Source: Dictyostelium discoideum
Taxonomy: Eukaryota
Direction: 5' to 3'
Assembly: GCA_000004695.1 (NCBI GenBank)
Contig: CM000151.3
Location: forward strand, 2,944,001 to 3,008,000
DNA length: 64,000 bases
Part shown: positions 1,279-15,208 of the stretch, piece by piece
Position numbering within the stretch: the stretch's first letter is position 1
How the letters are laid out: each line of letters opens with the position of its first letter
Made by a program: the position numbers and the translations under genes
Notes under the pieces: generated by a model
Database searches by the model: none
Seen by the model: the letters and a program-made list of their open reading frames with translations, nothing else
What the model was told of the DNA's origin: nothing

Positions 1279-3444
<2,166 letters not shown>

Positions 3445-7457: not shown

Positions 7458-9000
7458 ATGATACGATTAGTATATAATAATTTTCGAAAACTTCCAAAAA
7501 CGCTTTTAATACCATCATTCCAAAAACAACCACATCCCATACATTTTAATTTCAACAAAAAACATTTTTTTACTACTATTAATAATAATAATACCAATGA
7601 AACAATATTAACAACTGAAAATACCCCCACCAATTTAACCCCAAATAATAATAATAAAATAATAATTAAAAATACTGAAGATGAAATTAAAGAAACAATA
7701 TTTTCTGTTCAAAGGTTTTTATTTATTTATTTATTATTTTTTTTTAGAAAATAATATTAATAATTTTCTTTTTTCTTTTTTCTTTTTATTTTTTTTTTTT
7801 TATTTTTTTTTACTTTTAATAATAAAGGGAATTAAATATTATAGAATTAAATGATTGGTATAATGTTAATATTACAAAAATATTTTCAGAGAATAAAGAA
7901 CTTAAAAATAGTGAAATTAGTAAACCAATTTTAAAATTACAACAAATATTTAGAGATAATTTTGAATATTCATTTTATGAGATGTTAAAATTTGCATACC
8001 CTAAAGAAGAATGGGATAGAGTTAAATTGGTAAAATCAATTGATAGGAATAAATATTTTTGGTTAAATCAAGATAATATTGATTCTTTTATTCAATCTTT
8101 TACAACTGATATGAAATTCGATCAAACTCATCGTAAATTTGATAGGTTTCGATATAGTGATGAAAATGAAACTGATAATGAATATCTTAAACAATGGTAT
8201 AAAGTTCAAAAAAATGATTTTATAAAATTTAAAGGTCGTCCAATAATTGCACAATTTAATGATTCAATTTATGGTTTTCTTTGTAGTTATTATCCAAATT
8301 ATAATTTTAAACCTTGGTTATTTACATCAGCTCCAAGGTATACCTTATTTATTATTAATTTATTATTAATTAATTATTTATTAATTTATTAATTATTTAT
8401 TAATTTTTTTATTATTATTTTTTATTATTTATTAGAAATTTTTGGAAACCAATTGAAAATCAAAAACAATATTTACAATGGTTAGGTAAACAAATAGGAT
8501 TCACAGAATATAACCATTGGTATGGTATTGGTAAAAATGATTTTGTTAAAAATAATGGATCATCTTTATTATTATTATATAATGGATCACCAGCAAAAGT
8601 GATTATAGAAGTTTTTAAAGATGATTATGATTGGAAAGTTTGGAAATTTAATAATTTACCAATATTAAATGATAATAAAAATAATGTTGATAATAATAAT
8701 GATAATAATAAAAATAATAAAATTGAAGAAATTAAAGATGAATTAAAAACTTTAAGAGAATTTTTTAAATTTGCAGGAGAATATTATAATATTTTAGATA
8801 TTAAAGATTGGTATAGAGTTTCAAATTCACAAATTCAATATATTGGTGGATCACAACTTGTTAAAAAACATGGTGGATTATTTAATTGTTTAGAGATTTT
8901 ATATCCAGAAGAGAAATGGGATTATCATATTTATTCACAACCTGGTAAAAAATCATCACAACGTTTATTATCAATTTATTTAAATCATTTATTTATTCAA

Positions 9001-9035
<35 letters not shown>

Positions 9036-9407
9036 TAATAATAATATTGAAATATTTGAAGATTATAGACATCCAAATTTAAAATATCAACAATTAAGTA
9101 ATCATTCATTTCATTTAGATTTTTTTATACCTCAATTATCATTAGCATTTGAATATCAAGGTAAACAACATTATATGGATGTTCCACGTTTTGGTGATTC
9201 TACAATATATCAAAATCGTGATAATGAAAAAAGATTAATTTGTAAGAATAATAATATCACAATCATTGAAATTCCATTTTGGTGGGATAATCAAATTGAA
9301 TCTTTAATTGGTACAATTATCACTGAATTACCAAATTTAAAAGATCAATTATTAATAAATTATAAAAATTATTTATTAAATTATAAAAAAAATAATAATC
9401 AAATTAT

Positions 9408-9438
<31 letters not shown>

Positions 9439-9693
9439 CAAATTATTAATAATAAAAATGATAATAATAATAATAATAATAATAATGGTGATAATGGTGA
9501 TAATGGTGATAATAATAAAAATAAAAATAATAATAATAATAATAATTTAAAAAATATTAATGATAATAATAATAATAATGATAATAATAATAAAAATGGT
9601 AATAATAATCAAATTGATTTTGACACTTTTTTACCAATATCAAAAACACCACAAAAGGTTAGTAATCGTAAAAGACTTTTCAATAAAGAATGA
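7458..9693 (+). CDS. hypothetical protein of about 674 aa, with an N-terminal mitochondrial-presequence-like segment and a C-terminal DUF559/Vsr-like (PD-(D/E)xK-type) nuclease-like region; join(7458..7714,7828..8337,8436..9693)
   Basis: Three frame-compatible pieces. Exon 1 opens MIRLVYNNFRKLPKTLLIPSFQK (basic, no acidic residues). The exon 2/3 junction AG|GTATAC ... TTATTAG|A keeps frame (split codon aga). The C-terminus reads HLDFFIPQLSLAFEYQGKQHY...RDNEKRLICKNNNITIIEIPFWWD, which resembles DUF559-type endonuclease-like domains. The intron-1 donor GTTTTT is non-consensus, so exon 1 is uncertain; an alternative start is ATG 7982. Confidence 0.5.

Positions 9694-11220: not shown

Positions 11221-15208
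<3,988 letters not shown>

Follow-up and report, generated by a model that had tools for sequence, protein, structure and literature searches.

Within a 64,000-nucleotide stretch of the Dictyostelium discoideum genome, which we refer to as the window (contig CM000151.3, positions 2,944,001 to 3,008,000), positions 7458-9693 of the plus strand hold a gene whose three exons join in frame into a coding sequence (CDS) of 2025 nt that specifies 674 amino acids. The predicted product begins with a basic, presequence-like segment, continues through four copies of an all-helical repeat and a nuclease-fold domain of the Vsr/RAP type, and ends in an Asn-rich tail that carries a short conserved motif (Table 1). 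We describe the gene model, the domains and their relatives, and then weigh the reading that the protein is a mitochondrial, repeat-guided endonuclease.

Table 1. Features of the gene and its predicted product, in window positions. Residue counts refer to a conservation set of 158 members, comprising the window protein and homologs P0001-P0158, the homologs being drawn partly from a library of cluster representatives at 50% identity; active-site residues are predicted from conservation in this set and from spacing. HMM, hidden Markov model; i-E, independent E-value; AF2, AlphaFold2; pLDDT, predicted local distance difference test.
Feature	Position	Strand	Description
Exon 1	7458..7714	+	Residues 1-85 plus 2 nt; start codon, presequence-like segment, first helix of repeat 1
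Presequence-like N-terminus	7458..7598	+	Residues 1-47; 7 Lys/Arg, 0 Asp/Glu; amphipathic MIRLVYNNFRKL
Helical repeat 1	7671..8023	+	Residues 72-151, spans intron 1; repeat HMM i-E 4e-7; helical in AF2 model
Intron 1	7715..7827	+	113 nt; donor GTTTTT (non-consensus), acceptor AAAG; predicted
Exon 2	7828..8337	+	Remainder of repeat 1, repeat 2, beginning of repeat 3
Helical repeat 2	8051..8323	+	Residues 161-251, internal insertion; repeat HMM: C-terminal half i-E 2e-16, N-terminal part weak; AF2 model
Helical repeat 3	8336..8652	+	Residues 256-328, spans intron 2; repeat HMM i-E 8e-22; pLDDT >90
Intron 2	8338..8435	+	98 nt; GTATAC...TTAG
Exon 3	8436..9693	+	Repeats 3-4, nuclease domain, low-complexity tail, stop codon
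Helical repeat 4	8734..8922	+	Residues 356-418; repeat HMM i-E 1e-16
Vsr/RAP-type PD-(D/E)XK nuclease-fold domain (predicted)	8944..9378	+	Residues 426-570
Predicted active-site residues	9118..9231	+	D484, E495, Q497, H501, D518 and K521; conservation of these and of three other residues below
Q431			N-terminal helix; 153/158
D484	9118-9120	+	158/158
E495	9151-9153	+	157/158
Q497	9157-9159	+	Gln 119, His 31, Asn 8 of 158
G498			158/158
H501	9169-9171	+	158/158
R517			135/158
D518	9220-9222	+	158/158
K521	9229-9231	+	155/158
Conserved tail motif	9634..9675	+	P-I-(P/S)-x-x-P then basic residues; PISKTPQKVSNRKR, residues 656-669, after the poly-Asn region

An earlier, sequence-only reading of this DNA had proposed the three exons, and the peptides it quoted are present in the sequence where it had placed them. 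The splice junctions read AAAG/GTTTTT...AAAG/GG and CAAG/GTATAC...TTAG/AA, exon 1 meets a stop at 7752-7754 if left unspliced, and the setting is one of low GC content (0.15-0.30 in the window), short AT-rich introns and coding tracts of poly-Asn/Gln, which marks it as dictyostelid nuclear DNA. The best protein match was a hypothetical protein of Dictyostelium citrinum (P0001; 82% identity), its ortholog. Alignment of the D. citrinum locus (L001) with the window at the DNA level revealed three exons of approximately 90% identity, with similarity dropping sharply and precisely at all four predicted splice borders and declining 5' of the ATG, and with seven indels in exon 1 that are each a multiple of three. 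When the D. citrinum CDS was cut at the homologous borders, its translation was identical to the annotated P0001, and the exon 2/3 junction is uninterrupted in distant orthologs including that of Polysphondylium violaceum (APKKFW, TPKNIW and others). In comparison with D. citrinum, the ratio of nonsynonymous to synonymous substitution rates (dN/dS) was 0.26 in exon 1 (0.20 within residues 1-47), 0.49 across the repeats and 0.40 in the nuclease domain, and reached 1.3 in the Asn-rich tail of approximately 85 residues (9379-9630). Exon 1 is under purifying selection, and the tail appears to evolve neutrally. Together, these comparisons show that the CDS with its three exons is genuine and has been conserved.

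The position of intron 1 is conserved, and its donor in the window, GTTTTT at 7715-7720, is unusually weak. As the homologous donor of D. citrinum is GTAAAG (with GTATGT versus GTATAC at intron 2), the hexamer is a lineage-specific deviation and no argument against intron 1. An alternative donor, the GT at 7707, was rejected because the frame is broken with the sole compatible acceptor. The sequence-only reading had also allowed for a start further downstream at ATG 7982, which is unlikely because the corresponding M137 sits in the middle of the conserved repeat 1, a unit that crosses the exon 1/2 junction, and such a start would halve the conserved domain. The gene models of Tieghemostelium (P0003, 426 aa) and Acytostelium (P0004, 369 aa) begin within repeat 2 and are without the leader and repeat 1, both of which are present in the D. 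citrinum, P. violaceum and Heterostelium models; P0003 and P0004 are probably truncated gene predictions, not true differences. Annotations of related species already list the gene as a hypothetical protein, so that the gene itself is not new, and literature searches on RAP or on folds like those of restriction endonucleases in Dictyostelium turned up no mention of it.

Profile searches with the nuclease domain were uninformative at the level of named families. No Pfam family matched the whole protein, and the C-terminal 145 residues gave only DUF2726 (PF10881; 14.7 bits, E=0.026) below its gathering score of 24.7, while three homologs produced the same weak, sub-threshold signal (15.7-17.0 bits, E 0.005-0.013), a recurrence that suggests relatedness and not membership. 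There was no match at E<=10 to DUF559 (PF04480) in either the whole protein or its C-terminal 145 residues, and none in the window protein to the Pfam families RAP (PF08373), FAST_1 or FAST_2; homolog P0006 alone had a weak RAP score (14.6 bits against a cut-off of 24.2). The C-terminal domain had no matches in NCBIfam, phmmer and profile hmmsearch against PDB sequences found only a poly-Asn artefact (the MBP fusion 3oai) and a chance endoglucanase match, and an hhalign comparison of the family profile with Vsr gave no significant match (Prob 0.16) and aligned the Arg-Asp helix alone. With no significant sequence match, homology to any named family therefore rests on predicted structure.

In the predicted structure, an alpha-beta-beta-beta-alpha-beta core superposes on solved, Vsr-like members of the PD-(D/E)XK fold, and the C-terminal domain is structurally equivalent to solved RAP domains. 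The best catalytically characterised structural matches were Vsr and I-Bth0305I, with many other PD-(D/E)XK enzymes also matched, while a Foldseek search of viral models (BFVD) returned phage homing endonucleases at the top, together with DUF2726 and DUF559 proteins and giant-virus 'endonuclease-like' proteins. The model thus assigns the C-terminal 145 residues to the Vsr-like branch of the PD-(D/E)XK fold, a branch shared with RAP. The resemblance to DUF559/Vsr-like endonuclease domains that had been read from the sequence is supported as a predicted fold of the Vsr-like branch, and the Pfam check proposed at that time yields nothing beyond the sub-threshold DUF2726 score. Hallmarks of the family are an N-terminal helix with KKSxQRLL and a strand with IP(F/Y)WWD. 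A poly-Asn loop at residues 444-459 (8989-9036; pLDDT approximately 56) lies between the first helix and the first strand, and is much shorter in D. citrinum.

The conserved residues of the domain are laid out as an Asp on strand beta-2, a Glu and a Gln, His or Asn on beta-3 with a His just beyond, and an Arg-Asp pair and a Lys on the next helix. In a 20-sequence alignment the Asp, Glu, Gly, His, Asp and Lys are all invariant, and D484, E495, H501 and D518 fall on predicted strands and helix. The 'D...E.Q.K' core and Arg-Asp segment recognised in the sequence-only reading hence correspond to D484, E495, Q497 and R517-D518, but the motif lysine was misplaced: K499 varies across the family and the conserved lysine is K521. 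The catalytic residues of Vsr are E25, D51, H64, H69 and D97, as given in the I-Bth0305I paper (PMC3239194), and we confirmed the Vsr sequence against 1cw0. From D51 of Vsr, F62 follows at +11, H64 at +13 and H69 at +18, and from D484 of the window protein, E495 follows at +11, Q497 at +13 and H501 at +17, in each case with an Arg-Asp pair on the next helix. The residues found at position 497 include the His of Vsr and the Asn of I-Bth0305I, plus Gln. Based on this spacing, which I-Bth0305I shares, and on the predicted fold, we infer that D484, H501 and D518 are equivalent to D51, H69 and D97 of Vsr. Within the EDxHD set, the Asp, the acidic residue, the His and the second Asp are invariant; no counterpart was placed for the N-terminal Glu (E25 in Vsr, E170 in I-Bth0305I), the N-terminal helix instead conserving K427/K428 and Q431. 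FASTKD4, which its authors deem inactive, has an Asn in place of His69 of Vsr (PMC11879112). As the His never varies in the 158-member family, unlike in FASTKD4, catalysis is probably retained here.

Residues 72-418, about half of the protein, consist of four copies of an all-helical unit of approximately 70 residues with the consensus KGFWKDKENQKKFLEWLGKKLGIKKMEDWYRVSKKDIKKLGGSSLLKKYNGSLIKLLKSVYPEHSWKPWKF, which the sequence-only reading had overlooked. In the AF2 model (residues 86-569, pLDDT 83) each unit is formed by one long helix and four short helices, and repeat 3 is closest to the consensus FW..NQ..Y..WLG..L......WY.i...DF...GG.LL..YNGSP......YP...W..WKF. Pfam scans of the window protein and its homologs yielded no family for this repeat, a repeat profile run against PDB sequences gave only chance FUS RRM matches (E>0.1), and a word-indexed protein search with the same profile returned only six short unnamed fragments. 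Nor did the repeats superpose on the N-terminal helical part of FASTKD4. The repeat is thus of an unclassified and undescribed type. Taken together, the conservation pattern and the structural model make it quite likely that the protein couples a catalytically competent nuclease domain of the Vsr/RAP type to a repeat array.

Out of 1.84 billion cluster representatives, 38,203 matched the nuclease-domain profile at E<=1e-3 and 323 did so at E<=1e-30, and 122 of the 138 top representative matches combine the nuclease domain with 1-10 helical repeats. D. citrinum, P. violaceum, Tieghemostelium, Acytostelium and Heterostelium have one gene each, and further members come from Physarum, Cavostelium (at least six paralogs), the testate amoeba Pyxidicula and a heterolobosean, such that the repeat-plus-nuclease architecture recurs in Amoebozoa and Heterolobosea with several paralogs per protist. 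The earlier statement that such domains are uncommon in eukaryotic nuclear genomes went too far, since the fold is also that of RAP/FASTK proteins and the present family has numerous members among protists. In the four best representative matches (P0021-P0024; 696-1010 aa, two from Cavostelium) the nuclease profile matched in two separate stretches, which suggests a tandem duplication of the entire repeat-plus-nuclease unit.

In viruses, at least 455 contigs carry the same nuclease core (36-48% identity), in the form (L/I)(A/G)(F/I)EYQG.QH(Y/F)...RD..K...C...I.LIEIPY. At 79 viral loci from IMG/VR (L003-L081) this core lies C-terminal to arrays of a treble-clef-like zinc ribbon, KLxWKCxxGHxWxxxxxxxxxGxWCPxC, and in none of the 79 was the helical repeat found in these nucleases. 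Conversely, a 593-residue protein (P0007) encoded at 10001-11782 of L002, a 117-kb metagenome contig, has seven copies of the same helical repeat followed by a different nuclease-like domain (VDGF...YQFHGDYYHGNP). Other products of L002 are a dUTPase, a DNA ligase, a dNK/thymidylate kinase, a Peptidase_S74, a chlorophyll-a/b-binding protein and two rhodopsins, and its gene content therefore looks like that of a giant virus, perhaps an algal one. A repeat array joined to a Vsr-like nuclease thus appears, from these sequences, to be a recurring modular design.

The N-terminus had been read as resembling a mitochondrial presequence, and its composition and hydrophobic moment agree with that reading. 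The moment is highest (0.81) at residues 2-12, MIRLVYNNFRKL has a high helical moment, and the segment matches the composition of a matrix presequence, which is 20-60 residues long, Lys/Arg-rich, free of Asp/Glu and amphipathic. The remainder of the protein is approximately 12% acidic, so that the chance of 47 acid-free residues is approximately 0.88^47, or about 0.003. Ortholog N-termini are likewise basic, acid-free and amphipathic: in all four full-length dictyostelid proteins compared, the acid-free stretch spans 28-61 residues (28 in D. citrinum, 61 in P. violaceum and 46 in Heterostelium) with 4-7 Lys/Arg and little sequence identity. The distant homologs P0010 and P0012 share the basic, acid-free bias, and a basic, acid-poor start was present in 21 of the 37 homologs with more than 30 residues ahead of the first repeat. 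An element composed of a basic residue, two aromatic positions and Ser/Thr recurs as KHFFTT in the window protein, KHFCTT in D. citrinum, RYYFSS in P. violaceum and RYYSS in Heterostelium; its KHFFTT, RYYFSS and RYYSS forms resemble the R-3 cleavage motif of the mitochondrial processing peptidase, for which it is a candidate site. An endoplasmic reticulum signal peptide was rejected, there being no hydrophobic core. We infer that this basic segment, free of acidic residues, serves as a mitochondrial presequence of the cleavable kind, and on composition a mitochondrial location is fairly likely. At the opposite end of the protein, P[IV][PS] is found in 61 of the 107 family tails of at least 35 residues, a count that has no chance control for a three-residue pattern, often as PIPLEMPxRFKK or PIPKxYQK, and the motif may be a partner-binding peptide.

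This single-copy nuclear gene contains two spliceosomal introns and is conserved among the dictyostelid groups. Its downstream neighbour is a split M1 aminopeptidase gene at 11221-14436 on the plus strand, recognisable by its HEIAHQWFGDLVTMKWW...EGFA motif, and a Peptidase_M1 gene also lies downstream of the D. citrinum ortholog. Upstream, at 1279-3444 on the minus strand, are open reading frames that contain very long tracts of Asn/Gln/His and a segment resembling a histone fold, which is possibly a candidate NF-YC-type factor.

The reading that we favour, with moderate confidence, is that the protein is an endonuclease targeted to mitochondria and guided by its repeats, functionally analogous to FASTK/RAP proteins such as FASTKD5. 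The precursor would be imported into mitochondria and its presequence then removed; the four helical repeats would bind a specific nucleic-acid target and position the metal-dependent nuclease domain; and the Vsr-type site would cleave that target, with Asp484, Glu495 and Asp518 binding metal, His501 acting as general base, and Lys521 and Arg517 contacting phosphate. If the protein is mitochondrial, we lean towards RNA rather than DNA as its substrate, tentatively and at slightly less than an even chance. [quoted passage not shown]

Several observations weigh against this reading. Mitochondrial targeting is judged from N-terminal composition, and intron 1 of the predicted model has a non-consensus donor. 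The searches of Pfam, NCBIfam and PDB sequences and the hhalign comparison with Vsr gave nothing significant. The repeat region is not net basic (49 Lys/Arg versus 51 Asp/Glu) and matches no known nucleic-acid-binding module in structure. FASTKD5 appears to be metal-independent (PMC12242768), Vsr and I-Bth0305I, which share the intact catalytic set, cut DNA and not RNA, and the viral relatives with the EYQG.QHY core look like free-standing DNA homing endonucleases.

The last of these points lead to a serious alternative, albeit one that we consider rather unlikely, in which the repeats bind DNA and the Vsr-like domain nicks or cuts mitochondrial DNA in repair, recombination or genome maintenance, the gene having been domesticated from a homing endonuclease of viral or phage type. 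In its favour, Vsr and I-Bth0305I share the residue set and are Mg-dependent DNases, the core of the viral contigs sits with its zinc-ribbon arrays in a homing-endonuclease-like layout, homing endonucleases are the top BFVD matches, and the giant-virus-like contig joins the same helical repeats to another Vsr-like domain. The gene is, however, not mobile now, because it is single-copy, syntenic, intron-containing and conserved across dictyostelid groups, and on the same grounds an active mobile homing endonuclease was rejected; furthermore, the multi-paralog expansions, variable repeat number and organelle-type N-termini resemble those of RNA-binding families. Improbable in our view is a nuclear or cytosolic nuclease, acting for instance against invading DNA or in nuclear DNA metabolism, with an N-terminus that is mere low-complexity sequence. 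The compositional basis of the targeting call leaves room for it, relatives are common in viruses, many homologs have no obvious leader (though many of these are fragments or transcript models), and the basic PIxxxP-KR motif of the tail could be an NLS-like (nuclear localization signal) or partner-binding element. It would, however, have to account for the acid-free N-terminus maintained at low identity in all four full-length dictyostelid proteins, the purifying selection on exon 1, and the same bias in over half of the N-extended homologs. Least probable of all is a non-catalytic RNA-binding adaptor or mitoribosome-associated scaffold that retains the nuclease fold for binding only, a role proposed for FASTKD4 and observed in RAP proteins of the Toxoplasma mitoribosome, since the His that FASTKD4 has replaced by Asn is here kept, along with the acidic residues, in 157-158 of the 158 members, and strict conservation of the complete catalytic set is hard to account for by binding alone.

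A mitochondrial, repeat-guided endonuclease of this kind would have implications beyond Dictyostelium. The cutting of human mitochondrial polycistronic transcripts at sites without flanking tRNAs has reportedly been solved recently with FASTKD5. On the structural model, Amoebozoa and Excavata do carry proteins with a RAP/Vsr-type domain, here with a fully conserved catalytic set and a different repeat attached, and should the repeats be a modular recognition array they would form a new class of nucleic-acid-binding repeat beside PPR, OPR, HPR and mTERF. At its widest, and as a speculation that we think unlikely to hold in full, this would be an unrecognised, widespread protist family in which arrays of the new repeat of approximately 70 residues provide modular nucleic-acid recognition for an active Vsr-like nuclease, filling the role of FASTK/RAP proteins in Amoebozoa and Excavata, with the module shared or exchanged with giant viruses. 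The Dictyostelium gene would then be an experimentally tractable member, and the hypothesis is directly testable through Dictyostelium genetics. The link to viral nucleases would bear on the origin of organellar RAP-type proteins. The filling of a gap in Amoebozoa and Excavata and the new repeat are noteworthy for organellar gene expression, and do not overturn expectations.

Compared with characterised systems, the window protein shares with bacterial and phage DUF2726 and DUF559 proteins neither a score above the Pfam gathering threshold for the former nor any match to the latter. The beta-3 motif of DUF559 is E-x-D, whereas the third residue of that motif in the window family is Gln, His or Asn. 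Vsr and I-Bth0305I resemble the protein in predicted fold and catalytic residues and not in sequence, where similarity is insignificant; the Vsr zinc site and Trp intercalation residues are absent from it. EDxHD homing endonucleases such as I-Bth0305I are mobile and have a NUMOD/helix-turn-helix region, in contrast to a single-copy, syntenic gene with spliceosomal introns in whose product Pfam detected no NUMOD or helix-turn-helix domain. The viral nucleases join the shared core to zinc-ribbon repeats instead of helical ones, P0007 joins the same helical repeats to a different nuclease-like C-terminus, and neither P0007 nor the viral zinc-ribbon proteins have an organelle-type leader. A parallel in architecture exists with the FASTK/RAP proteins, namely human FASTK and FASTKD1-5 and the RAP proteins of apicomplexans and algae. 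The differences are the absence of a Pfam RAP, FAST_1 or FAST_2 match; repeats that are five-helix units with a DWY/GG..LL/YP..W signature and not the heptatricopeptide or octotricopeptide hairpins found upstream of RAP; and the Vsr-type His, invariant in the window family and replaced in FASTKD4. On the predicted structure, the protein would work like, and be structurally homologous to, members of the Vsr/RAP branch of PD-(D/E)XK enzymes, and we accordingly group the gene with the organellar proteins that combine helical repeats with a RAP-like domain.

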